DNA of 64,000 bases from an uncultured bacterium (GTDB lineage Bacteria > Patescibacteriota > Minisyncoccia > Phycocordibacterales > GWA1-40-21), in NCBI GenBank assembly GCA_963804975.1, contig CAWDSG010000002.1:405015-469014 (forward strand), in the 5' to 3' direction. Of the stretch, positions 7,529 through 62,619 are shown one piece after another. The notes beneath the pieces were generated by a model. It ran no database searches and was not told the DNA's origin. It worked only from the letters and a program-made list of their open reading frames with translations. The translations under genes and the position numbers were made by a program. The first letter of the stretch is position 1. Every line of letters starts with the position of its first letter.

Positions 7529-9928
7529 TTATTTCTTACCTTGCCACTTCCAATTCAAAATCTCTTCCGGATCGTCCCCCACTTTCAAAATATATTCTTT
7601 GTGCTCTTTGATTTTATTTTGATATTTTTCAATCAATTTTTTGGCTTTTTCTTTTTCAATTACTCCATTCTTTGCCATTTTTTCCACCGCTTCGATGAAC
7701 AGATTATATCTGTCCGCTTTATTCCTCATCAGAATATCAAGCGGAGTTGTGGTAGAGCCGCTTTCCATATAGCCATGCACCGAAAACCTGTCCAAGCTGT
7801 TCACATAATAAAACAAAATCTGCTGAAGAGTTTCCGGATATCCGTGAAAATTGAAAATAGCCGGCTTGTCCTTCGTAAAATATTTTTCAAATTCTCCTTC
7901 AGGAAGCTTATTGTAATGGCTGACCGTATTCGGAGAAATTTCCAGGATATTCACGAATCGTACTTTCACTTCAAGGGCTTCCTCTTTCAGTAATTGAACT
8001 GCCGCAAGAGCTTCTTTCACTAAGTACTGTCCGCAGCCGCATAAAACAACATCGGGATTTTCATCAGACGCAAAATCCCATATTGAAATTCCTTTCTCCA
8101 CTTCTTTTTTTGCCTGCTCAACAGTAAGCCATACCGGCTCAACACTCTTTTCGGAAACAATGACATTTATTTCATTTTTTGAAGACAAACATTTTTCGGC
8201 AATCAGAACAGCTTCGTTTTCGTCCGCAGGAAAATATACATTTATAAAATCGTGTTTTTTCAGCAATATATCCGCAATGAATCCGGGATTCTGATGTGAA
8301 AAACCGTTGTGCTCCTGCCGCCAACCGGTTGAAGAAATAATATAATTCAAAGACGGAATATCACCCCGCCATTTTGTCTCTCTCGCAATTTTCATAAATT
8401 TGCTGAATTGATCCGCCATGCTCGCTACGATCATAATAAACGACTCATACGAAGGAAAAACTGCAAACCTGCCCGAGAGCGCGTATCCTTGAGCGAGGCC
8501 TTGCAGGGAATTTTCCGAGAGTATTTCTATAACTCTGCCATCGCGAGCAAGGTCTATGTCCCACTCTTCTATTTTTCCGACAAAAGCACGGGGAGTGGCA
8601 TCAAAAATGTAATGCAGGCGATTTGAATAAGTTTCATCAGGAGAAAACATTCTGAAATTTCTTTTTTCTTTGTTTAATCGAACAACTTCGGCAAAATATT
8701 CGCCAATTTTTTGCATTGCGCCAACTGAGGTTTCGCCCGGAGCTTTTATTTTTGTTTCAAATTTTGAAATATCCGGCAAAATTAAATCCCGCGAATTATC
8801 TCCTTTTTTTATCCCGAATGCATGCTGATTGTCGCCCATTCTCAAACCTTCTTTAGGAATATTTTCTTCAATATCTTTTGAAAAACCGGTTTGTTGATTA
8901 AATAATTCATCAAATTTATAAGATTTCATCCATTTTTCCAGCGCTTTCAGCTCTTTTTTGTCCGTTTTCATTTCCCTGCCGACGATTTGATGAGAAAAAC
9001 AATTCCCCTCTACTTTCGCGTCAAATGCCTTGCCTCGTCCCTCAAGCGCCCAACTATTCAAATATTTGATGCCTGTCCAACCCTTCGGAGTTTTTAAAAC
9101 AATCATCGGGAATCTGTAATAATCTTCTCTCGGTTTGTCAGGATTTTCTCTTGCTTCCTTTTGAATCGCTCTGATGGACGCATAAGCAATGTCCAAAGCT
9201 TTAACCATTTTTTCATAAACTTTATCGTTGTGCCCTTCCACGATTATCGGCTTATATCCGTAACCTTTGAATAAAGATTTCAAATCCGAATTATTCATTC
9301 GGCCGAAAATTGTCGGTCCGGAAATTTTATATCCGTTCAAATGAAGTATCGGCAATACCGCGCCATTTTTTGCCGGGTCAATGAATTTATACAAATGCCA
9401 CGCGGTTGCCGCAGAAGCAGTTTCTGCTTCACCGTCGCCGACAAGACAGGCCACAATAAGGTCTGGATTGTCCAAAACTGCCCCGTAGGAAGTAGAAAGT
9501 GAGTATCCTAGTTCTCCACCCTCCAAGATAACTCCGGGCGTCGCTGGGCTTGAATGGCTTGGAAAACCGTAAGGCCAGCTGAAATTTTTTGTAATATAAG
9601 CAATGCCGTTTTCATCTTTTTTCGCTTCAGGATAATATTTTCCCAAAGTGCCTTCTAGAAAAACATTTGATTGGATTGCTGGAAAGCCATGACCGGGACC
9701 GAGCACGAACATCATATTGGCGCCTGTTTTGTTTATAAGATTATTCAGGCAAGCATATGTAAAATTGATTCCCGGACAAGTACCCCAGTGGCCGAGAAGC
9801 CGCGTTTTTATATCGTCAAAAGTAAGCTTATCATTTAATAAAAAATTGGATTGCAAATATATCTGCCCGACAGAAAGATAATTCGTTGCACGAACATATT
9901 TCTTGATTCGTTCGATTTCGTCTGACAT
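7529..9928 (-). CDS. xfp: xylulose-5-phosphate/fructose-6-phosphate phosphoketolase
   Basis: 799 aa. ATNYLSVGQIYL...LLGHWGTCPGINF N-terminal signature of XFP phosphoketolases. Confidence 0.9.
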   Translation of the reverse strand: MSDEIERIKKYVRATNYLSVGQIYLQSNFLLNDKLTFDDIKTRLLGHWGTCPGINFTYACLNNLINKTGANMMFVLGPGHGFPAIQSNVFLEGTLGKYYPEAKKDENGIAYITKNFSWPYGFPSHSSPATPGVILEGGELGYSLSTSYGAVLDNPDLIVACLVGDGEAETASAATAWHLYKFIDPAKNGAVLPILHLNGYKISGPTIFGRMNNSDLKSLFKGYGYKPIIVEGHNDKVYEKMVKALDIAYASIRAIQKEARENPDKPREDYYRFPMIVLKTPKGWTGIKYLNSWALEGRGKAFDAKVEGNCFSHQIVGREMKTDKKELKALEKWMKSYKFDELFNQQTGFSKDIEENIPKEGLRMGDNQHAFGIKKGDNSRDLILPDISKFETKIKAPGETSVGAMQKIGEYFAEVVRLNKEKRNFRMFSPDETYSNRLHYIFDATPRAFVGKIEEWDIDLARDGRVIEILSENSLQGLAQGYALSGRFAVFPSYESFIMIVASMADQFSKFMKIARETKWRGDIPSLNYIISSTGWRQEHNGFSHQNPGFIADILLKKHDFINVYFPADENEAVLIAEKCLSSKNEINVIVSEKSVEPVWLTVEQAKKEVEKGISIWDFASDENPDVVLCGCGQYLVKEALAAVQLLKEEALEVKVRFVNILEISPNTVSHYNKLPEGEFEKYFTKDKPAIFNFHGYPETLQQILFYYVNSLDRFSVHGYMESGSTTTPLDILMRNKADRYNLFIEAVEKMAKNGVIEKEKAKKLIEKYQNKIKEHKEYILKVGDDPEEILNWKWQGKK

Positions 9929-9939
9929 AGGGAAATTAT

Positions 9940-9970
9940 ATCAAGCTTTTTATAAATAAAAAAGCTTGAT
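9940..9970. promoter_or_regulatory. perfect 12-bp inverted repeat (ATCAAGCTTTTT-N6-AAAAAGCTTGAT) in the divergent xfp/typA promoter region; candidate operator
   Basis: Seen directly. Lies between two divergently transcribed genes, so it is not a terminator. Confidence 0.35.
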
Positions 9971-10029
9971 TTGATTTTAAATAAAAAAAATGTTTTAATA
10001 AGAATAGCGCGAGAGCGCTTTATTTCATT

Positions 10030-11856
10030 ATGGAAATTCGCAATATAGCAATAATCGCACACGTTGACCACGGTAAAACCACCCTCACAGACGCAATTTT
10101 GAGGCAAACGGGCATGGTGGAAGAAGGCGTGAGTATGGACAGCAATAAACTCGAACAAGAGCGCGGTATTACCATTTATGCCAAGAACACCTCCATTTTT
10201 TACAAGGATACAAAAATAAACATCGTTGATACTCCCGGTCACGCGGATTTCGGCTCAGAAGTTGAACGTGTTCTCCGCTCTATTGATACGGTACTTCTTG
10301 TGGTGGATGCGCAAGAAGGCCCGATGCCGCAAACTAGATTTGTCTTGAAAAAATCTCTTGAGCTCGGACTTAAACCGATTGTCGTTATAAATAAAATTGA
10401 CAAATCTGCCGCAAGACCGGAAGAAGCTCACGAAGAAGTGCTTGAACTTTTTATGGAACTTGGCGCAAATGACGAGCAACTGAACTTCCCTACTATTTAC
10501 GCTATCGGCAAAAAAGGCGTTGCGTGGAAAAACCTGCCTACCGGCCAGGCAGGTCTGAAAGATGAACGAAAAGACCTGCCTACCGGCCAGGCAGGTCTAA
10601 CTCCTCTTTTGGATCTGATTCTTGAAAAAATTCCGTCAGCTTCAACGCAGGAAAATCTCGCCGCTCCTTTTACGGCGCAAATTTTTAATCTCGCTTACGA
10701 TAATTTTCTCGGCAGAATGGGAATCGCCAGAATCTATACCGGAAAAGTAAAAGACGGACAGACAGTTTTTGTCAAAGACACAGACGAAAAAAGCAGACAA
10801 GCAAAAATCACAAAACTTTTCACTTTCAAAGGAATTCAAAGAGATGCCGTGCCGGAAGCCGCTGCCGGAGACATTGTTATGATTGCCGGAATTCCCGACG
10901 CTTACATCGGAGAAACTCTTTGCGAAAACACAGACCAAAAAGCTCTGCCTTCCATAAATATAGATGAGCCGACAATTTCTTTGAGTTTTTTGGTCAATGA
11001 TTCCCCGTTTGCAGGAAGAGAAGGAAAATTTGTTACAGGACGACAGATAAGAGAACGACTTGAAAAAGAATTGGAAGTAAATGTCGGGCTCAAAATAGAT
11101 TTTAATACCGATCCGATCACAGTTTACGGCAGAGGCGAACTTCACATCGCAATCTTGATAGAAAATATGCGCCGAGAAGGTTTTGAGCTTCAGGTTTCCC
11201 AACCGCAAGCAATTATTAAAGAAATTGACGGCGTAAGATCCGAACCGTTTGAAGAAGTCATCGTGGACGTGCCATCGGAATTCCAAGGAACGATCATTGA
11301 AAAACTCGGCAAAAGAAAAGGGATTATGAAAGATATGAAAATCAAAGACAACCAGGTCCGCATGGTCTTTGAAATTCCAACAAGAGGACTTCTTGGATAC
11401 AGAGGGGCTTTTATTATGGATACAAAAGGCCTTGGAATCCTTTCATCGCGATTTATCGGCTTCAAGCCATACACCGGAGAAATTCAGAAGCAAGAATTCG
11501 GCTCAATGACCTCAATGATTTCCGGAAAAGCTATGGCTTACTCGCTTTGGAACTTGCAGGAGCGCGGCGTGCTTTATATTGATCCTGCCATAGATATTTA
11601 TGAAGGAATGGTCATCGGACATGTTTTGAACGGCGAAAATCTTGAGGTAAACCCGATAAAAAATAAAAATCTTACGAACGTCCGCGCCTCGGCAAGCGAT
11701 GAAGCGCTTTATCTTGTTCCGCCATTTCGCCTTGATATTGAAAAAGGTTTGGAGATTATGCAAGACGATGAATATCTGGAAATCACTCCGAAATCCGTTC
11801 GTCTCCGAAAAAAGTTTTTGACTAAAAATGATAGATCAAAAGCCGGAAGAAAATAG
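10030..11856 (+). CDS. typA: translational GTPase TypA/BipA
   Basis: [20 protein letters not shown]-domain and overall BipA architecture. Carries a tandem 42-bp GC-rich palindromic insertion encoding [23 protein letters not shown]. Confidence 0.9.
10532..10596 (+). repeat. tandem duplication of GC-rich palindromic element ACCTGCCTACCGGCCAGGCAGGT, in frame inside typA
   Basis: Two copies (10532..10554 and 10574..10596) of a 23-bp near-palindrome, GC-rich against an AT-rich background. Confidence 0.8.
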
Positions 11857-11885
11857 GTTCCGGTTTCTAGGTTTTAGGTTCTAAT

Positions 11886-11922
11886 AAAAAATCATTCTCC
11901 AAACTTGGAGAATGATTTTTTG
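11886..11922. terminator. bidirectional rho-independent terminator hairpin (typA / LysE-family gene)
   Basis: AAAAATCATTCTCCAA-AC-TTGGAGAATGATTTTTT: perfect 12-bp stem with A-run and T-run on either side. Confidence 0.75.
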
Positions 11923-11924
11923 TT

Positions 11925-12524
11925 TTAAAATACGTTTAATAAAGTTTTTATACCTAGTATCATAAGTACAATGGCAAGAATTTTAAAAGTAATGCTTACC
12001 AGATTTTTCTTTTCTAAAACTGGACGGAATTTAAAGAATACAAAAGCCAGCAATGTAGTTGCTAAGAGCCAAGCAATTTCAAATATAAACAGAAAAATGA
12101 ATTTTCCGCCAATAAGAACGCTGTCCAGTATTAAGGCCTTCGGAATTCCCACGGCTATCCAAAAGATCCAATAACCGCTGTTTAGAGCCGTTAAAATTAT
12201 GATCTGATAAAAAGTGAGAATCTGTTTTGATTCGATATTTATTTTTTCTATTTTCCAAACCTTGGAAGCCAGCCAAAAAAGAACGATTGCCCCGCCAATT
12301 GAAATGATCTGTATGGCAATTTTTGACAGACCGATCTTGTAAACAATATAAATGGCCAAAAAAGCGCCGACAGTTTCGGCAATCAGAGCCAAAAAAACAA
12401 TCCTCATTCCCTTTCGGAAACTGCTATTTAAAATCTCAGCAAACGTTCCTGTAAGAATCGGGCCGGGAGTGGCTCCGCCGATCAATCCCAAAAGAAAAGC
12501 TTCAAATAATGAACCTATGACCAT
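11925..12524 (-). CDS. LysE/RhtB-family amino-acid exporter-like membrane protein
   Basis: Multi-TM protein with GPILTGTFAEILNSSFRKG segment resembling LysE translocators. Confidence 0.5.
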   Translation of the reverse strand: MVIGSLFEAFLLGLIGGATPGPILTGTFAEILNSSFRKGMRIVFLALIAETVGAFLAIYIVYKIGLSKIAIQIISIGGAIVLFWLASKVWKIEKINIESKQILTFYQIIILTALNSGYWIFWIAVGIPKALILDSVLIGGKFIFLFIFEIAWLLATTLLAFVFFKFRPVLEKKNLVSITFKILAIVLMILGIKTLLNVF

Positions 12525-14084: not shown

Positions 14085-14690
14085 ATGCGCAAAATAGTTT
14101 TTGATATTGAAACAAGCAATGATTTCTTGTATGTCGGACTAGGCGATCTATCCAAGCTGGATTTGTCCGTTGTCTGCATTTACGATTACGAAACCGGCAA
14201 ATATTCCAGTTTCACGGAGGGTACACTGAAGGACCTCTGGCCGATTTTAGAAAAAGCGGAATTGCTTATCGGCTACAATAGCGATCATTTTGATATTCCA
14301 ATTTTAAATAAATATTATTCCGGAGACCTTTCAAAAATCAAAAGTTTGGATCTGATGAAAGAAATAAAGAAATCCCTGGGCAGAAGAATTAAGCTTGATA
14401 CTATCGCGGAAGCAACGCTTGGCAGGAATAAAACCGGAAGCGGAATAGATGCGATTAATTGGTGGAAGGCCGGAGAAAAGCAAAAAGTCATTGATTATTG
14501 CATTGAGGATGTGAAAATAACAAAAGAAGTTTACGAATACGCTCTGAAAAACGGCTTTCTCAAATACAAAGACGGACTTGGCCGCCTGCCCGGCCAAGGA
14601 TCAGGCAAAGAAATAAAAGAAATCCCGATTGATACTTCAAAATGGCAAGATATTGATAATTCAAAAATGACTTTCACCTTGCCGTTTTAA
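14085..14690 (+). CDS. DEDD-family 3'-5' exonuclease (DnaQ/RNase D-like)
   Basis: FDIETSN (Exo I), YNSDHFDIPIL (Exo II), YCIEDV (Exo III) motifs. Contains a GC-rich palindrome insertion near the C-terminus (LPGQGSG). Confidence 0.55.
   Translation: MRKIVFDIETSNDFLYVGLGDLSKLDLSVVCIYDYETGKYSSFTEGTLKDLWPILEKAELLIGYNSDHFDIPILNKYYSGDLSKIKSLDLMKEIKKSLGRRIKLDTIAEATLGRNKTGSGIDAINWWKAGEKQKVIDYCIEDVKITKEVYEYALKNGFLKYKDGLGRLPGQGSGKEIKEIPIDTSKWQDIDNSKMTFTLPF
14585..14599 (+). repeat. GC-rich palindromic element copy (CCTGCCCGGCCAAGG), in frame in the exonuclease gene
   Basis: Same motif family as in typA, leuS, rsmH, lysS, greA and priA. Confidence 0.6.
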
Positions 14691-18408: not shown

Positions 18409-21276
18409 TTATACAACAAAGTTGATTACTTTGTTTTTAACGAAGATTTTTTTAATAATTCTCTTGCCGGAGAGCCACTTGACAATATCTTGATTGTTTA
18501 AAGCTGATTTTTCCACTTTATCCTCCGAAGAATCTGCCGGTACGTCAAGAGTTGCCCGAACTTTGCCGTTTATCTGCACAACGATTTTCACATTTCCCGA
18601 TTTTAATTTGCTTTCATTATATTTCGGCCAGCTTTCCAAAGCAATCATTTTTTTACCACCAAAGTTTGCCCAAATCTCTTCACAGATATGCGGAGCAAAA
18701 GGAGAAAGAATTTTTATCAAGGATAAATATGATTCCTTGCTTATCTTGTCCTCTCCTTCAAAATTATTCGCCAAAATCATCATTGCAGAGACCGCAGTGT
18801 TTGCATTGAATGATGCGATATCGTCTCCGACTTTTTTTATCGTTTGATTCAATAATATTTTCGTTTCCTCGCTGTCGGTAAAATTTTCGGCAACTTTTTC
18901 CTGAAGCTTCCAGACCTTGTCCAAAAATCTTCTTGAGCCAACCATGCTATCGGTGCTCCAAGCAATCTCCTGTTCAAACGGTCCCATAAACGACTCATAA
19001 ACCCTGAGTGTGTCGGCGCCTACATTTTTTACCACCTCATCGGGATTGACCACATTTCCCCATCTTTTTGACATTTTCCTGTTATCCGAGCCGAGTATCA
19101 TTCCCTGATTTCTAAGCTGTTTAAAGGGCTCTTTTGTGCTTACTATGCCTATATCAAAGAGAAACTTGTGCCAAAAACGAACATAAATAAGATGTCTTGT
19201 GGCATGCTCCGTACCTCCGACATACATGTCCACCGGAGCCCAATATTTTTCTTTTTTCGGATCAACCAAGGCCTTATCGTTTTTTGGATCCATATAGCGT
19301 AAATAATACCAAGATGAGCCGGCCCATTGCGGCATCGTGTTTGTTTCTCTTTTACCGGCACCGCCGCATTTCGGACACTTCACGTTTACCCATTTTGTCA
19401 TGGCGGCAAGCGGCGACTCTCCGGTTCCTGTCGGTTCGTAAAATCTGACCTTTGGAAGCATAACAGGCAGATCTTTTTCCGGAACTGCAACTGTCCCGCA
19501 TTTTTCACAATGCACTATCGGGAATGGCTCGCCCCAATATCTCTGACGCGAAAAAACCCAATCCTGAAGTTTGTATGTGACTGTCATTTTTCCGCCGGCA
19601 AATTCTGTGATTTCTTTCATTATTTCCGTATTTTTCTTGCCGTCAAATTTTCCGGAATTGATCATTATTCCATTGCCGATAAATGCATGTGGTCCTTTTT
19701 CCAAATGAGCAATAATTTCAGGGAGTTCCGAAACAGGCCAAAAAATTTTATTTATTTCTGAAATCGGCACCCATACAACAGTGTGCTTCTCCGATTCTTC
19801 ATCTGAAAGTTCATTTTTTTCGAGATTCGCTAGTTCCACAACAAAAACTTGAGTAAATGCCTGGCGATTGACATTCTTATGTGCTGCATAAAAATGCGTT
19901 TCCATTTGCCAGCCAAGTTTCTCCACTTTTTTAAAATTTTTATAGCCGGTTTCTTCTTTCACTTCCCGTGCGATAGCATCTTCGCGCGATTCGTTTTCAT
20001 CAACGCCACCGATAACAAGTGTTTTCCATGGAACTTTTTTCCATTGGATTTGAATGATCTTATCTTCGGTAGGATGCTTCACAATTGCCTGCACATTGGC
20101 TCTCGGACTCCATTGTTTATCATTTTTGGGAAGATTATCTTTATCAATAAAAAACGGTGCAATAACCTGTTTTATCGGCAAATTATATTTCTTTGCAAAA
20201 GCAAAATCGCGGTCATCATGTGCCGGCACAGCCATTACTGCCCCCGTGCCATAATTCGCCAAAACATAATCCGCGATAAATACGGGAATTTCTTCCTTGT
20301 TTACTGGATTTACGGCTTTCACTCCGTCAAGTTTAACGCCGGTTTTTTCCTTGCCTTCCGCAGTCCTTTCTATTTCCGTCCTGTTTTTTATTTCCTTCCT
20401 GTATTTCTCAACTTCAGCCCAATTTTTTATCTGCGGCTTCAATTCATCAATCAAACTATTTTCCGGAGCAATAACGACATAAGAAAGGCCGAATAAAGTA
20501 TCAGGTCTTGTAGTGAATACTTTTATTTCTTTTCCTGCCTGCGCAGGCAGGTTTGAATCCTTAATTTTAAAAGTAATTTCCGCGCCTTCCGAACGGCCAA
20601 TCCAATTCCTCTGCAATTCCTTGATGTGTTCCGGCCAGGCAAGCTCATCCAAATCATTCAAAAGCCGATCGGCATAATCGCGGATTTTCAAAACCCATTG
20701 TTTCATCTGTTTTTTCTCTACCACAGTCCCGCACTGTTCGCATTTTCCGTTCTCTATATCTTCATTTGCCAATCCGGTCTTGCAGGAAGGGCACCAATTT
20801 ATCGGCGCAAATGACTCATAAGCCAGACCTTTTTTGAACATCTGCAAGAATATCCATTGCGTCCATTTGTAATATTTCGGATCTGTTGTGTTTATTTCCC
20901 TATCCCAATCATAATCCAGACCTATAATACTTAACTGTTCTTTGTATCTTTTGACATTTTTCTTTACTGCAATTTCAGGATTTATTTTATTTTTTAAGGC
21001 GTACTGTTCTGCCGGCAAGCCAAAAGCGTCCCAACCCATCGGATGAAGAACATTAAAACCATTCATTCTTTTGAATCTTGAATAAATATCAGTAGCGACA
21101 TAACCTCGCGGATGGCCGACATGAAGGCCTTCTCCCGACGGATACGGGAACATATCAAGCACGTAACATTTCGGCTTGTCGCTCTTCTCGGTGGTCTTGT
21201 AGATTTTTTCCGCAGCCCATTTCTTTTGCCATTTCTTCTCAATCTTTATGTGGTCGTATTTGCCGGTTTTATTCAT
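18409..21276 (-). CDS. leuS: leucyl-tRNA synthetase with inserted Nudix-like domain
   Basis: HVGH, editing domain, KMSKR, anticodon-binding domains. Likely start MNKTGKYDHIKIEKKWQKKW at 21276 (ORF track extends to 21342). About 160 extra residues between the AHDDRDF..IKQVI and GIMINSGKFDG blocks contain a perfect Nudix box. Confidence 0.93.
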   Translation of the reverse strand: MNKTGKYDHIKIEKKWQKKWAAEKIYKTTEKSDKPKCYVLDMFPYPSGEGLHVGHPRGYVATDIYSRFKRMNGFNVLHPMGWDAFGLPAEQYALKNKINPEIAVKKNVKRYKEQLSIIGLDYDWDREINTTDPKYYKWTQWIFLQMFKKGLAYESFAPINWCPSCKTGLANEDIENGKCEQCGTVVEKKQMKQWVLKIRDYADRLLNDLDELAWPEHIKELQRNWIGRSEGAEITFKIKDSNLPAQAGKEIKVFTTRPDTLFGLSYVVIAPENSLIDELKPQIKNWAEVEKYRKEIKNRTEIERTAEGKEKTGVKLDGVKAVNPVNKEEIPVFIADYVLANYGTGAVMAVPAHDDRDFAFAKKYNLPIKQVIAPFFIDKDNLPKNDKQWSPRANVQAIVKHPTEDKIIQIQWKKVPWKTLVIGGVDENESREDAIAREVKEETGYKNFKKVEKLGWQMETHFYAAHKNVNRQAFTQVFVVELANLEKNELSDEESEKHTVVWVPISEINKIFWPVSELPEIIAHLEKGPHAFIGNGIMINSGKFDGKKNTEIMKEITEFAGGKMTVTYKLQDWVFSRQRYWGEPFPIVHCEKCGTVAVPEKDLPVMLPKVRFYEPTGTGESPLAAMTKWVNVKCPKCGGAGKRETNTMPQWAGSSWYYLRYMDPKNDKALVDPKKEKYWAPVDMYVGGTEHATRHLIYVRFWHKFLFDIGIVSTKEPFKQLRNQGMILGSDNRKMSKRWGNVVNPDEVVKNVGADTLRVYESFMGPFEQEIAWSTDSMVGSRRFLDKVWKLQEKVAENFTDSEETKILLNQTIKKVGDDIASFNANTAVSAMMILANNFEGEDKISKESYLSLIKILSPFAPHICEEIWANFGGKKMIALESWPKYNESKLKSGNVKIVVQINGKVRATLDVPADSSEDKVEKSALNNQDIVKWLSGKRIIKKIFVKNKVINFVV
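19678..20160 (-). other. Nudix hydrolase-like domain inserted within LeuS (Nudix box GGVDENESREDAIAREVKEETGY at about 19942..20010)
   Basis: Matches Gx5Ex7REUxEExGU exactly. Flanking beta-strand-like segments ANVQAIVKHPTEDKIIQIQ and VVWVPISEINK. Confidence 0.65.
20534..20551 (-). repeat. GC-rich palindromic element copy (CCTGCCTGCGCAGGCAGG, perfect palindrome), in frame in leuS
   Basis: Encodes NLPAQAGKE in LeuS. Confidence 0.7.
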
Positions 21277-21408
21277 ATTAAAACATAATATAACAAAAAT
21301 AGTCGGAAATAAAGAGTTCTTTGGCTTGACATAATCCGTCATTTAATTAAGATAGGACCAGAACAGGCAAGTCCGTTCCTTTCCAAAAAAATCTGTCAGG
21401 AGAGAAAA

Positions 21409-21757: not shown

Positions 21758-21790
21758 AAGGCCCGAACACGGAAGTGTTCGGGCCTGATT
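21758..21790. terminator. bidirectional terminator hairpin GGCCCGAACAC-GGAA-GTGTTCGGGCC
   Basis: Perfect 11-bp GC-rich stem followed by a T-run, between convergent genes. Confidence 0.7.
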
Positions 21791-45468: not shown

Positions 45469-47400
45469 ATGAAAATTCTGGAAGTTATTCCAATTTCAAA
45501 AGGAATCACAATGGAAACGCTTACGTATTTTACCGGAAGCGATGTTCCCGCTGGTTCCGTGGTAAAAGTTCCGCTCAGGAAAAAAGCGATTTCGGCAATC
45601 GTCCTGTCCGTCAGAGAGGCGGAAATCATGAAGTCGGAAATAAAAAAATCAGCATTTTCGCTGAAAAAAATCGAAAAGATAAAACATTCAAATTTGCTTA
45701 GAAAAGAATTTGTGGAAGCATCGGTGGATACGGCCGAATATTATGCCGGCTTTACCGGAGCTGTACTTGGTTCAATGATTCCTAAGGTTTTTTTCGAAAA
45801 TCTGGACAAGCTTAAAATCCCAAAAAGTGAAGTTTTAGCCGAAACGCCAAAAGCTGCGGAAAAATTCGCCATCCAATCAAATGACGAAGACAGATACGCC
45901 CATTATAAAAGCATTATTCGGGAAGAATTCGCAAAAAACTATTCCGTGTTTTTCTGTCTGCCGACAATTCAGGATATTAAAAAAGCAACTGAGACCTTGA
46001 AAAAAGGAATTGAACATTACACCTTTACGCTTCATGGACTGATGAAAAAGAAAGAAATCATAGAAATTACAAATAAAATCCTCAAAGAAAAACATCCTAT
46101 TTTGATAATCGCCACAGGCGCATTTTTGAGCATTCCAAAAGAAAAAATCGGCACGATAATAATAGACAAGGAAAATTCGCGGGCTTACAAGCAGCAGACA
46201 AGACCATACATTGACATCAGAAATTTCGCTGAAGCATTCGCAAATAAAATAAAAGCAAAAATAATTTTCGGCGACCTGCTTCTGCGCGCAGAAACGATAT
46301 ACCGATACAAAAAAGGAGAGCTGATAGAAATCGCTCCGCTCAAATTCCGTTCGCTCACTACTTCAAATGAAGTGCTTATAGATATGAAGCAAAAAAAGAC
46401 GGGCAAAAATGATGAGAAAGAAACAAAAAAAGACGAATTCAGGATATTCAGTCCGGAGCTTGAGAAAAAAATAAAGGAAAATATCGAGAATAACGAGCAT
46501 ATGTTCATTTTCACCGCAAGGCGAGGCCTTTCCCCTTCCACACTCTGCTCCGATTGCGGAAATATAGTCAAATGCAATTCTTGCGGAGCTCATGTAGTTT
46601 TGCACCTACCTAGCCGGCAGGCAGGTAAAGCGACGGAGAATTTCTTTTTGTGCCACAGATGCGGAGAAAGAAGAAGTGCAAATGAAAAATGCGTAAACTG
46701 CGGAGGATGGAAGCTTGCAACGCTTGGAATCGGCGCAGAACTGATTGAAGAAAAATTGAAGGAAATGTGCCCAAAATGCAAAATCTGGAGATTGGATGCC
46801 GATGTTGCCAAAACCCACAAAAAAGCCGGAGAGATTGCGGAAAAATTTTACAATTCTCCGGAAAGCATTCTGATCGGAACGGAAATGGCGCTTCTTTATC
46901 TTTCAAAAAAAGTTGAAAATTCCGCCGTGGTTTCCATGGATACTTTTTTCTCAATCCCCGATTTCAGGGTAAACGAAAAGGTTCTGAATATTCTGCTGAA
47001 AATACGCGCTATTACGGACAGAAGTCTGATAATACAGACCCGCGACAGCTCGCAGAAAGTTTTCAACTACGCTTTGACCGGGAATTTGATTGACTTCTTC
47101 AAAGATGAAATTGACGATAGGAAAGCTCTCGGCTATCCGCCATTTTCAACTCTCATAAAAATATCCGTTTCAGGTTCCAAAGAAGACGTTTTGAAATCCG
47201 CGGAAGATTTGCAAAAAACTATAGAACCGTACGAAATGGATGTATTCCCCGCGTTTATTCCGCAGAAAAAAGGAAAATGCGGCATAAATGGAATAATAAA
47301 AATCCCAGGAGGAAAATGGCCCGACAAAAATATTTCCGAAAAACTGAAATATCTTCCGATGAATTTCTCCGTGAATGTGGATCCGGATAGTTTATTGTAA
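45469..47400 (+). CDS. priA: primosomal protein N' (PriA) with degenerate helicase motifs
   Basis: N-terminal 3'-binding domain, Cys-rich zinc-binding region (CSDCGN..CNSCGAH..CHRCGE..CVNCGG), RRG and GTEM motifs. Walker A is absent and the DEEH box reads IIIDKENSRAYKQ. ORF track start at 45433; the Met at 45469 is more likely. Confidence 0.8.
   Translation: MKILEVIPISKGITMETLTYFTGSDVPAGSVVKVPLRKKAISAIVLSVREAEIMKSEIKKSAFSLKKIEKIKHSNLLRKEFVEASVDTAEYYAGFTGAVLGSMIPKVFFENLDKLKIPKSEVLAETPKAAEKFAIQSNDEDRYAHYKSIIREEFAKNYSVFFCLPTIQDIKKATETLKKGIEHYTFTLHGLMKKKEIIEITNKILKEKHPILIIATGAFLSIPKEKIGTIIIDKENSRAYKQQTRPYIDIRNFAEAFANKIKAKIIFGDLLLRAETIYRYKKGELIEIAPLKFRSLTTSNEVLIDMKQKKTGKNDEKETKKDEFRIFSPELEKKIKENIENNEHMFIFTARRGLSPSTLCSDCGNIVKCNSCGAHVVLHLPSRQAGKATENFFLCHRCGERRSANEKCVNCGGWKLATLGIGAELIEEKLKEMCPKCKIWRLDADVAKTHKKAGEIAEKFYNSPESILIGTEMALLYLSKKVENSAVVSMDTFFSIPDFRVNEKVLNILLKIRAITDRSLIIQTRDSSQKVFNYALTGNLIDFFKDEIDDRKALGYPPFSTLIKISVSGSKEDVLKSAEDLQKTIEPYEMDVFPAFIPQKKGKCGINGIIKIPGGKWPDKNISEKLKYLPMNFSVNVDPDSLL
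46605..46626 (+). repeat. GC-rich palindromic element copy (CCTACCTAGCCGGCAGGCAGGT), in frame in priA between zinc-finger cysteines
   Basis: Encodes HLPSRQAGKA. Confidence 0.6.
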
Positions 47401-60507: not shown

Positions 60508-60810
60508 TTAAATGGTGGCAAGAATGATATTGATGATTCCAATTGCCGAAACCATAATGAATATGCCGATTACTCCCCATATCATATGCTGATAACCCTC
60601 TTTTCTTTTGTCGGGAACATCGGCATTCTGAATGAAAACCATCACGCCCCAGACAAAATAAACAACTGCAAGAGCAAATAAAAGATAAATAACCGGCTTG
60701 ACGATCTGATCCAACACATTCTGATATAACTTACTGAAGGTAATATTGGTATTAGTGCCGCTCGGAACAATAATGGCGGCATATGTTTTTTGGATTATAA
60801 AATCCAGCAT
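60508..60810 (-). CDS. TrbC/VirB2-like small 2-TM protein (paralog 5 of 5)
   Basis: C-terminal MIWGVIGIFIMVSAIGIINIILATI shared with the paralogs. Confidence 0.45.
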   Translation of the reverse strand: MLDFIIQKTYAAIIVPSGTNTNITFSKLYQNVLDQIVKPVIYLLFALAVVYFVWGVMVFIQNADVPDKRKEGYQHMIWGVIGIFIMVSAIGIINIILATI

Positions 60811-60816
60811 ATTGTT

Positions 60817-61173
60817 TTATATGGTTGGAATCTGGCTGCCGATATTTTCCTGTACGCCCGATGTGCCGAATGTCGCCTGAAGTATCGCCACAAGTCCCCA
60901 AACTGACACCATTATGAATATGCCGATAATTCCCCAGAGCATGCCTGATTTTGCCGCTTTTTTCTTTTCTTCATTTCCGGACATAACGTAAAGAATAACG
61001 TTCCAAATAAACCAGACTACCGCCAAACCTATAAGCAAAGGCACCAATCTGTTCAGTATCACACCGGCAAAACTAAACAATCCCATAATACCCTGATTTG
61101 GAGCATATCCTTGAGCGAGTGCCACAAGAGGAGAAACTCCAACCGAAGCGCTTGCTAATATTCTTTTCATCAT
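60817..61173 (-). CDS. TrbC/VirB2-like pilin paralog (4 of 5)
   Basis: Signal peptide plus two hydrophobic helices; LWGIIGIFIMVSVWGLVAILQATFG. Confidence 0.5.
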   Translation of the reverse strand: MMKRILASASVGVSPLVALAQGYAPNQGIMGLFSFAGVILNRLVPLLIGLAVVWFIWNVILYVMSGNEEKKKAAKSGMLWGIIGIFIMVSVWGLVAILQATFGTSGVQENIGSQIPTI

Positions 61174-61283
61174 AAATAAATTACTTTTAATGAATAAACT
61201 TCGCGACCTTAATTATAATATAAACATTATAAATCTTACAAAAGCAACAATCAAGTGGATAATTACGCCTAAAGATCCGTCAT

Positions 61284-61838
61284 TTATCTTGGCATATTGA
61301 TGCTGCTGGTATTCAATCTAAACGTAGATTGAAGAATATTTACGATTCCCATAACCGAAAAAATGACAAATAGGCCTATAATCCCCCATAAAATAAACTG
61401 TTTTCCCGTATCTTTGTCTTCTTTGCCGCTTGCGCGTATGATTTTGAATATTCCCCAAAGGAAAAAAACAAGAGCAAGGCCGATAATAATGCGAACCACC
61501 AGATAATAGAAGCATCCTACCACAAGGTTCATGATTAAGCTCTTAAAATCCGTTACCGCTCCGGGGTTGCAGCTGAAAGAATTTGTTGTTGCGGAGCCGT
61601 TTACAGCTGAACTAGCTCCGCCGCAAAAAGCCGGGTCGTTTCCGACATAAACATGATTGACGCAGCTTGGATCGTGGCCGTTCGGAAAAACCGCCAGATT
61701 CGGCTCGCAATAACAGCCGGTAGCCGCATAAGAAATACGAGCTCCGGCAAAAAAAGAAACGGAAACACTAAAAGCAACGAGTAGAGATAAAATAAAAACT
61801 GAAATTATTTTTTTATTTTCGATATTTGATCTTTGCAT
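61284..61838 (-). CDS. TrbC/VirB2-like pilin paralog with Cys-rich N-terminal extension (3 of 5)
   Basis: ILWGIIGLFVIFSVMGIVNILQSTF, compared with the NVMSTFFG C-terminus of TrbC as recalled. Eight Cys in the extracellular part. Confidence 0.5.
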   Translation of the reverse strand: MQRSNIENKKIISVFILSLLVAFSVSVSFFAGARISYAATGCYCEPNLAVFPNGHDPSCVNHVYVGNDPAFCGGASSAVNGSATTNSFSCNPGAVTDFKSLIMNLVVGCFYYLVVRIIIGLALVFFLWGIFKIIRASGKEDKDTGKQFILWGIIGLFVIFSVMGIVNILQSTFRLNTSSINMPR

Positions 61839-61846
61839 TTTGATTT

Positions 61847-62215
61847 TTACGATTGCAGATTCTTTATCGTGCTGATAATGATCGTTGCGATTATTTTTGC
61901 GCCAAGCAGGATGGCAACGCCAATGCAGGTATTGAAAAAAATATCTTTCGCTTTTTTAAGCCCTTCAGGATTTCCCCGCGCCGCCACAAACTTATATCCG
62001 GAATAAATAAAAGCAACAATCGCGACGACACTTCCCACTTCCAAAACATAACCCAGAATTGTATTCACGAGAGTCGGAACATCGGTAATGTTTTTTAAAG
62101 GATTCTGTATTACTCCGGCCTGCGCAGCGTAAGAAACCGAGGGAATAAAAATTGCCGAAGCGGAAACCAAAAACATAAAAATTGTTATTCTTATTTTTTT
62201 ACAATATTTTTTCAT
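61847..62215 (-). CDS. TrbC/VirB2-like pilin paralog (2 of 5)
   Basis: PTLVNTILGYVLEVGSVVAIVAFIYSGYKFVAARGNPEG resembles the TrbC core. Confidence 0.5.
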   Translation of the reverse strand: MKKYCKKIRITIFMFLVSASAIFIPSVSYAAQAGVIQNPLKNITDVPTLVNTILGYVLEVGSVVAIVAFIYSGYKFVAARGNPEGLKKAKDIFFNTCIGVAILLGAKIIATIIISTIKNLQS

Positions 62216-62235
62216 TTTTTTAATTTAATTGATAA

Positions 62236-62619
62236 TTAACTTCCTAAAAATCTCAATGCTCCCGTGCTTGAATTTACAAGCGCCGCGATAACCGTATGGA
62301 TAATAAGCCAAGCGCATAGCACGATAAGTATGCCGATAATGGTTTTCTTGAACATCCCGAGAGCTTCTTCTATTTTGACTGTATTGCCGGGATTGAAAAG
62401 CATTTCTCCGCCTGCAATCGCAAAAGTAATGGCTGCCACTGAAACAGATATTCCTAAAAACCAATTGATGATGTTATTTACAAGAGTCGCCAGAGAACTG
62501 AAATCGCAATCGGGACCGTTGCACGGAACAAGCCCGGCTGCAAGAGCGGCCATCGGAACACCAATGAATGCAAAAAATAAAAACGGAAGGATTTTATAAT
62601 AAAGATTGTTATTCTTCAT
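62236..62619 (-). CDS. TrbC/VirB2-like pilin paralog (1 of 5)
   Basis: Long signal peptide, then ATLVNNIINWFLGISVSVAAITFAIAGGEMLFNPGN, compared with VirB2 ATMVNNICTFILGPFGQSLAVLGIVAIG as recalled. Confidence 0.55.
   Translation of the reverse strand: MKNNNLYYKILPFLFFAFIGVPMAALAAGLVPCNGPDCDFSSLATLVNNIINWFLGISVSVAAITFAIAGGEMLFNPGNTVKIEEALGMFKKTIIGILIVLCAWLIIHTVIAALVNSSTGALRFLGS

Follow-up and report, generated by a model that had tools for sequence, protein, structure and literature searches.

How did typA (bipA), a gene of an uncultured bacterium of the Patescibacteriota, come to contain one GC-rich palindrome twice within a few dozen nucleotides, without loss of its reading frame? The gene lies in a 64,000-nt stretch of the 606-kb contig CAWDSG010000002.1, which was analysed at its full length and which we call the window. 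The initial annotation regarded the repeat, given as 10532-10615, as a 42-bp unit of palindrome plus spacer duplicated head to tail, and saw in it recent or ongoing expansion or slippage. From our comparison with relatives, typA instead carries two separate in-frame insertions of a 21-nt GC-rich unit, CCTGCCTACCGGCCAGGCAGG, flanking seven ancestral codons. We further propose that these are, very probably, separate insertions of a family of selfish palindromic elements that keep the reading frame.

The typA product has the GTP_EFTU, EFG_C and BipA_C domains (precomputed Pfam), and E. coli BipA (5a9v) aligns with it over the full length (E 2.5e-179). The initial annotation had stated that a palindromic element lies at the core of the feature and that the reading frame is preserved, and this agrees well with our results: the 23-nt palindrome ACCTGCCTACCGGCCAGGCAGGT occurs at 10532-10554 and at 10574-10596, both times in frame within the intact 608-aa open reading frame (ORF), and a match of this kind appeared in none of 100 dinucleotide-preserving shuffles of the window. 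Flanking bases bring each copy of the repeat to 29 nt (10528-10556 and 10570-10598), with 28 of 29 positions identical and a spacing of 42 nt. It stops at 10598 and does not reach 10615. Only 29 positions of a 42-nt unit repeat, and the 13 nt that follow the first copy (GAAAGATGAACGA) are not found after the second. The best 42-nt register is 33/42 identical, and Tandem Repeats Finder, run on 9500-12000 with a minimum score of 30, reported no array at the site.

The relatives of TypA indicate which part of the repeat is new. When 5.8 billion proteins were searched with TypA, the matches were the protein of the window itself and 119 relatives from Patescibacteria/Paceibacterota. By BLASTP, these relatives are 71-88% identical to it, and most of them have 592-595 aa. 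All of these 119 closest relatives, when aligned, read GVAM-KN-LKDEQKD-LTPLL and have no element. Since the spacer is present in all of them, LKDERKD is ancestral typA sequence and not, as first thought, a part of the duplicated unit. A true 42-bp duplication would have given LKDERKD twice; with the spacer ancestral, the net gain consists of two separate 21-nt blocks, and its size is indeed 14 codons, or 2 x 7 palindrome codons. The polymorphism to be expected among strains is the presence or absence of each 21-nt unit, not one, two or three copies of 42 bp.

The DNA of five relatives gives the form of the empty sites. At the first site, it reads AAA AAT CTA AAA in L142 and L143, with AAC in L144, AAT TTA in L145 and GAA TTG in L001. 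At the second, L142 has AAA GAT CTG ACT, the general form is AAA GAT CTN ACT, and GAT is found in 4 of the 5 relatives. The spacer of L001, TTG AAA GAT GAA CAA AAA GAT, is near-identical to that of the window. In the simplest reconstruction from these sequences, each unit would split an Asn or Asp codon between its positions 2 and 3 (AA^T, GA^T), with the flanking residues kept. Another possibility is a placement behind AAC or GAC that would involve 2-3 nt of microhomology. The ancestral loop itself contains an imperfect direct repeat, AAAAATCTG / AAAGATCTA, with a spacing of 21 nt, which could be a target shared by the two insertions or a guide for a double template switch. At the first insertion, the flanking host bases A and T lengthen the palindrome to 23 nt, and the hairpin has -8 kcal/mol as DNA; at the second, with host AGA and TCT, the stem reaches 10 bp (-10.7 kcal/mol). 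Pairing between the two units is possible as well and gives a 22-bp hairpin of -23.5 kcal/mol (z = -5.9). The coordinates are collected in Table 1.

Table 1. Palindromic units of the window, with their host gene typA and the stretch between its two units.
Feature	Coordinates	Strand	Basis
typA/bipA, 608 aa, host of both insertions, intact	10030..11856	+	ORF list, Pfam, homology
Insertion 1, CCTGCCT-ACCGGCC-AGGCAGG, encodes LPTGQAG (residues 169-175)	10533..10553	+	Absent from 119 relatives
Ancestral typA stretch between the units, T CTG AAA GAT GAA CGA AAA GA, encodes LKDERKD	10554..10574	+	Relatives' sequence
Insertion 2, 21-nt unit identical to insertion 1, LPTGQAG (residues 183-189)	10575..10595	+	Relatives' empty site
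Different GC-rich palindrome, CTTGGCCG-CCTGCC-CGGCCAAG, in the 8-codon insert GLGRLPGQ	14577..14598	+	Window-specific versus relatives
18-nt perfect palindrome CCTGCCTGCGCAGGCAGG in leuS, encodes LPAQAG	20534..20551	-	Orthologue comparison
Decayed unit CCTACCT-AGCCGGC-AGGCAGG (CCTACCTAGCCGGCAGGCAGG) in priA, LPSRQAG, one stem mismatch	46605..46625	+	PriA alignment

In the protein, the units fall in a flexible loop that lies between the G5 region and the last helix of the G domain, and the extra residues are tolerated there. The initial annotation had placed the repeat in a surface loop of the G domain, and both the BipA structure 5a9v and an AlphaFold2 model confirm this position. E. coli BipA is 14 residues shorter at this loop. 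In the AlphaFold2 model, residues 171-187 have a predicted local distance difference test score (pLDDT) below 50 and are flanked by a confident strand and a confident helix.

The typA units are not the only ones in the window. From the leuS orthologue of the closest relative (L001), exactly the 6 residues encoded by the leuS palindrome are missing. In PriA, 119/119 relatives read VLH-KS-PAENFF, while the window reads VLH-LPSRQAGK-ATENFF, a gain of 6 aa. All four copies (two in typA, one each in leuS and priA) are intragenic, and the copies in typA, leuS and priA are absent from orthologues, as are two copies in a pheT gene of Bacteroidota. Because the window holds four copies and about 76 kb from five relatives hold none, the element has expanded in this lineage. 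The typA copies, being perfect and identical, look younger than the priA copy. Thus, of the expansion that the initial annotation had suggested, recent activity of the element in this lineage stands, and slippage of a 42-bp unit does not. When 11 syntenic genes were compared with two relatives without regard to palindromes, the window-specific short insertions were both typA units, the leuS unit and GLGRLPGQ; only two short insertions were non-palindromic. Decayed inserts resembling LPAQAG are also found at other loop positions in TypA relatives (P0070, P0071, P0074, P0107, P0036 and P0113) and at various loop positions in PriA relatives (P0182, P0156, P0201, P0204 and P0224).

The GLGRLPGQ insert belongs to an RNase_H_2 / 3'-5' exonuclease-like ORF (14085-14690, +). 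No other copy of its palindrome was found in the 265 loci searched, and it possibly arose by the same process but is not of the same family. Its loop, CCTGCC, is the stem hexamer of the family described here. Among the PriA relatives, P0204 has its insert, LPTQTS, in the same alignment column as the priA copy of the window. The leuS gene (18409-21342, -) also contains an inserted NUDIX domain of about 150 aa after the editing domain (window 19675-20157; Pfam PF00293, residues 437-532), which the orthologues in two relatives, 801 and 806 aa long, do not have.

We then consider how far the unit extends beyond this lineage. GTDB species genomes were scanned with ACCTGCCT-N7-AGGCAGGT, which gave at least 120 matches, and metagenomes with CCTGCCTRCCGGMCAGGCAGG, with the flanks unconstrained, which gave at least 120 matches, 122 copies being analysed. 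Members of the family share the stem CCTGCCT/AGGCAGG; the loop, with CCGG at its centre, has about 7 nt, and variants of 18 and 20 nt occur. Among the genome matches listed, 88/120 have loops with CGG, mostly centred on CCGG, and the dominant loops are GTCCGGC/GCCGGAC, TGCCGGC/GCCGGCA and GTCCGGT/ACCGGAC. The hosts of these listed matches are mostly Bacteroidota and Ignavibacteria, with about a dozen Patescibacteria lineages and also Planctomycetota, Omnitrophota, Elusimicrobia and others; cultured isolates are included. Of the same listed matches, 70/120 lie in open frames of at least 150 aa, and 50 of these 70 intragenic copies are read in the frame (D/N/Y/H)-L-P-(A/T)-G-(Q/K)-A-G. The metagenome matches listed give a similar picture: 79/122 copies are inside long open frames, and LP[TA]GQAG is found in 40 of these 79, against 1/6 expected. 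The proteins that carry in-frame copies are unrelated to one another and include UxaC (glucuronate isomerase), a UvrD-type helicase-nuclease, an S9 peptidase and PheRS beta.

A filled and an empty site can be compared directly in pheT of Bacteroidota, where two units of the Chitinophagaceae locus L106 are missing from the Ferruginibacter locus L036. The empty TGC AAT GCA GAA becomes the filled TGC AA[C CTG CCT GCC GGA CAG GCA GG]T GCA GAA, with no duplicated bases. The L106 gene has three LPAGQAG units in all; one is common to L036 and is older and slightly mutated. Close pairs within one gene, as in typA, occur elsewhere: in L106 (two NLPAGQAG, 117 nt apart), L063 and L038. In L243, three in-frame 21-nt units abut one another at 716-778 (LPAGQAG-LPTGKAG-LPTGQAG), so that true tandem arrays of the unit do exist elsewhere, with a period of 21 nt and not 42. 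In an all-against-all BLAST of the 150-nt flanks of 249 copies, the flanks were unrelated, and the matches were only to orthologous genes or overlapping neighbours. The 21-nt unit itself is therefore the repeat. The unit is not evidently phage-borne, since the same pattern as in the genome scan gave only 19 matches, mostly with random loops, in IMG/VR as a viral control for chance occurrence, nor is it plasmid-borne in the PLSDB collection, where BLAST with a two-unit query gave one weak match, from Citrobacter.

Some copies in other phyla are intergenic (L070, L101, L116, L121, L193; L009/L030; L105/L265; L022/L035/L077/L130). Some of them lie between short tandem repeats, such as AATTTCTAATTT on both sides in L193, some within longer palindromes (CATTCCC...GGGAATG; ATTCCGAA...TTCGGAAT), and some directly after a TAA stop, beside a second hairpin, CTCCCC-CGG-GGGGAG. 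Apart from the palindromes, the window has a run of five small genes with T4SS_pilin/TrbC matches at 60508-62619 (-); in the annotation of Logan contig L266, which is identical, murJ and a gene for a solute-binding protein adjoin this run.

Taking these results together, we suggest a plausible mode of spread. The unit would be a minimal selfish, non-autonomous element, a hairpin-forming 21-mer that is copied and then inserted into DNA by blunt joining. Since its length is divisible by three, it would be frame-neutral, and selection on frame and orientation would leave mainly copies that read LP(A/T)G(Q/K)AG. The typA subtype, if reversed in the LP frame, reads CCT GGC CGG TAG, a stop, which would explain why both typA copies point the same way. 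Their loop, ACCGGCC, is rare (7 of the 122 metagenome copies listed), and the leuS and priA copies have other loops. Since the two typA copies share this rare loop, they would be sister copies; they may descend from a common master copy, or one of them may have been the source of the other. No target-site duplication was found in the pheT filled/empty pair, and the typA sites are consistent with this; neither the target motif (TCT, AAARA) in other copies nor a larger parent element in the 150-nt flanks of 249 copies was found. The loci inspected, about 2 Mb in all and not searched systematically, showed no parent insertion sequence (IS) that shares these terminal inverted repeats. The paired copies in L198 and L209 were considered as transposon ends and rejected; between them lie an ORF resembling a membrane transporter and another resembling a serine recombinase, the latter with a copy of its own. 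It is quite possible, although we would stop short of calling it probable, that CCTGCCT-(N)CCGG(N)-AGGCAGG is an undescribed minimal selfish element across Bacteroidota/Ignavibacteria, Planctomycetota/Omnitrophota, Patescibacteria and other phyla, inserting without target duplication or flank homology by a mechanism outside the models for IS, transposable elements of the miniature inverted-repeat kind (MITEs) and repetitive extragenic palindromes with their associated tyrosine transposases (REP-RAYT). The one-base microhomology at its ends and the avoidance of T and A in its flanks, described below, would hint at such a mechanism. With a length of exactly seven codons and no stop in five of its six readings, such an element could colonise the coding sequence of essential genes.

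Several points weigh against our main interpretation. The identity of the stem across phyla is partly set by the search patterns, and the genome and metagenome counts are lower bounds that give no per-genome abundance. In TypA, identity to the closest relative is no more than 88-90%, and L144 has AAC and GAC; the exact empty sites of this lineage are therefore reconstructed ones, at which AAT and AAC cannot be told apart. Two copies 42 nt apart could also be a matter of chance in a permissive loop, given dozens of genomic copies. In the metagenome loci L146-L265, moreover, the flanks are non-random: T at -1 (4%) and A at +1 (2%) are nearly absent, and there is an excess of G at -1 and of C at +1. 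One-base identity with the unit's own ends is found in 86 of the 122 metagenome copies listed, compared with about 46 expected. A simple blunt, sequence-blind insertion therefore does not account for the flanks, and microhomology-assisted joining fits this bias better than a classical transposase. Because no mobilising enzyme, master copy or insertion event was observed, mobility is deduced solely from patterns of presence and absence.

Among the other explanations for the typA repeat, the likeliest takes a first insertion as given and derives the second copy from it locally, through short-patch conversion or a double template switch. A growing strand that stalls at one of the two repeats AAAAATCTG / AAAGATCTA could re-pair at the other, copy the 21-nt hairpin and return. 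Hairpins favour polymerase stalling, the two inferred targets are near-identical, and the copies are identical to each other, including one to three flanking bases and the rare loop that sets them apart from the other copies of the window. Even so, two precisely placed switches would be required, the first insertion would still need another route, and the close pairs in L106, L063 and L038 do not share similar flanks; we regard local copying as unlikely, though it keeps some weight. A true 42-bp tandem duplication by replication slippage, with the second spacer diverged or lost afterwards, would account for the 42-nt spacing and the 29 nt of near-perfect identity. It is extremely improbable, because it would have left a perfect palindrome beside 13 fully diverged nucleotides, the spacer is not repeated, the best register reaches only 33/42, Tandem Repeats Finder is silent, the relatives have the spacer without any unit, and the net gain of 14 codons is exactly twice the seven palindrome codons.

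Separate insertion of a DNA element also has to be set against explanations of the palindrome itself. The strong bias of frame and orientation towards LP(A/T)G(Q/K)AG among the matches listed, together with an old pheT copy that keeps its peptide in two genomes whose PheT are 68% identical, could mean that LPxGQAG is a motif of the protein, a linker or recognition site gained convergently, and that the palindromy of the DNA is incidental. This is very unlikely: the hosts are cytoplasmic enzymes with no relation to one another; the remaining five combinations of frame and orientation are represented too, as are sites between genes; the loop is found along with its reverse complement, as for a DNA unit (some bases being fixed by the scans); and decayed copies drift freely (LPAQT, LPAQG, NSAQAG). 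We likewise give little credence to the palindromes as excision footprints, the joined terminal inverted repeats of a larger transposon. Constant outer arms, a variable centre and the 18/20/21-nt variants do resemble joined ends, but a full transposon would inactivate essential hosts such as leuS, pheT and priA, no larger element with these arms was seen, L198 holds ordinary genes between its two copies, and the unit occurs in head-to-tail arrays. Some sequencing chemistries are disturbed by hairpins, which brings up an artefact of assembly or sequencing. An independent Logan assembly of run ERR10755942 (an assembly, not reads) is identical to the window for 3393 nt from 9464, including both typA copies, and this makes an assembler artefact unlikely. 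Since the reading frame is preserved, the unit is also present in isolate genomes and many unrelated projects, and mutated copies are common to orthologues, we attach almost no weight to an artefact.

If separate insertion is accepted, the typA locus should be annotated as a small-element insertion polymorphism and not as a microsatellite-like expansion. Intragenic palindromic selfish DNA is known from the Rickettsia palindromic elements (RPEs), some REPs and organelles; here it takes a far smaller form of seven codons, which several other phyla share with the ultra-small genomes of Patescibacteria. The element is a natural experiment that reveals which protein loops tolerate seven extra residues, and the family, if confirmed genome-wide, would provide a simple sequence marker of recent lineage-specific protein insertions. 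Were it indeed an undescribed element, it would be a measurable source of LPxGQAG loop insertions in bacterial proteins. The unit also raises the tractable question of how copies of a 21-nt hairpin enter new sites without duplication or homology; since cultivable Bacteroidota carry it, this could be tested experimentally.

Finally, we compare the unit with known systems. An intrinsic terminator does not fit the typA copies, which have no T-run and a position in the middle of an ORF; the window's true terminators, such as those at 21759, 59986 and 60461, differ in sequence. With Rfam 15, the typA site gave only sub-threshold matches to miRNA hairpins, and nothing overlapped the unit in 14 other loci. 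One Acidobacteriota locus, L121, has two Acido-Lenti-1 motifs (RF01687; 5310-5355 and 5517-5562) at 120-380 nt from its unit, probably by coincidence. The searchable literature, the coverage of which is incomplete so that an earlier description is possible, held no mention of the DNA or peptide strings and no description of such an element.

Tandem duplication or slippage shares with the typA repeat its identical blocks, short fixed spacing and preserved frame, but here the intervening sequence is ancestral and unrepeated, and relatives have no copy rather than one. Bacterial MITEs, such as those of Coxiella, are non-autonomous, 50-500 bp long, flanked by target-site duplications and derived from an identifiable IS. 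Those that insert into genes resemble our unit in their inverted-repeat structure and in adding a peptide segment to a protein; they differ from it in that the unit has 21 nt and no target-site duplication was found. Mitochondrial GC clusters, double-hairpin elements and the PstI palindromes of Neurospora are organellar and lineage-specific, usually 30-60 nt long, and some have short target duplications. By analogy only, they too are short GC-rich palindromes that spread in AT-rich compact genomes, with some insertions in frame within protein genes.

The closest parallels are RPEs and REPs. RPEs, reportedly the subject of work by Ogata and colleagues in 2000, are about 100-150 bp long and confined to Rickettsia. 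Like them, our palindromes lie in frame in unrelated, often essential genes, at surface-exposed positions, are translated, and vary in presence between close relatives. Unlike them, the unit is 21 nt (with 18-20-nt variants) and 6-7 residues long, is spread over several phyla and is without the RPE consensus sequence. The nearest published work, which also takes up RPEs, concerns REPs of the GTAG and CGTC superfamilies; these palindromes measure 20-40 nt, their stems are GC-rich, and a minority of them are inside ORFs (Di Nocera et al. 2013, PMC3733652). The ORFs that bear them include tRNA synthetase and DNA repair/replication genes, and some have two inserts at close sites (PMC3733652). With its 21-23 nt, stem of 7-10 bp and 7-nt loop, the typA unit is an imperfect palindrome in the sense used for REPs. 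In contrast to REPs, it has no GTAG/CGTC tag or unpaired tail, and the flanks of the 122 metagenome copies listed are variable; those in typA are GAAAA/TCTG and AAAGA/TCTA. REPs are also mostly extragenic, whereas the copies of the window are all intragenic, and REPs are species-specific by family, whereas the CCTGCCT/AGGCAGG stem recurs across phyla. The element thus works like RPEs and intragenic REPs and belongs to none of these known classes; it represents an apparently undescribed and widespread family.

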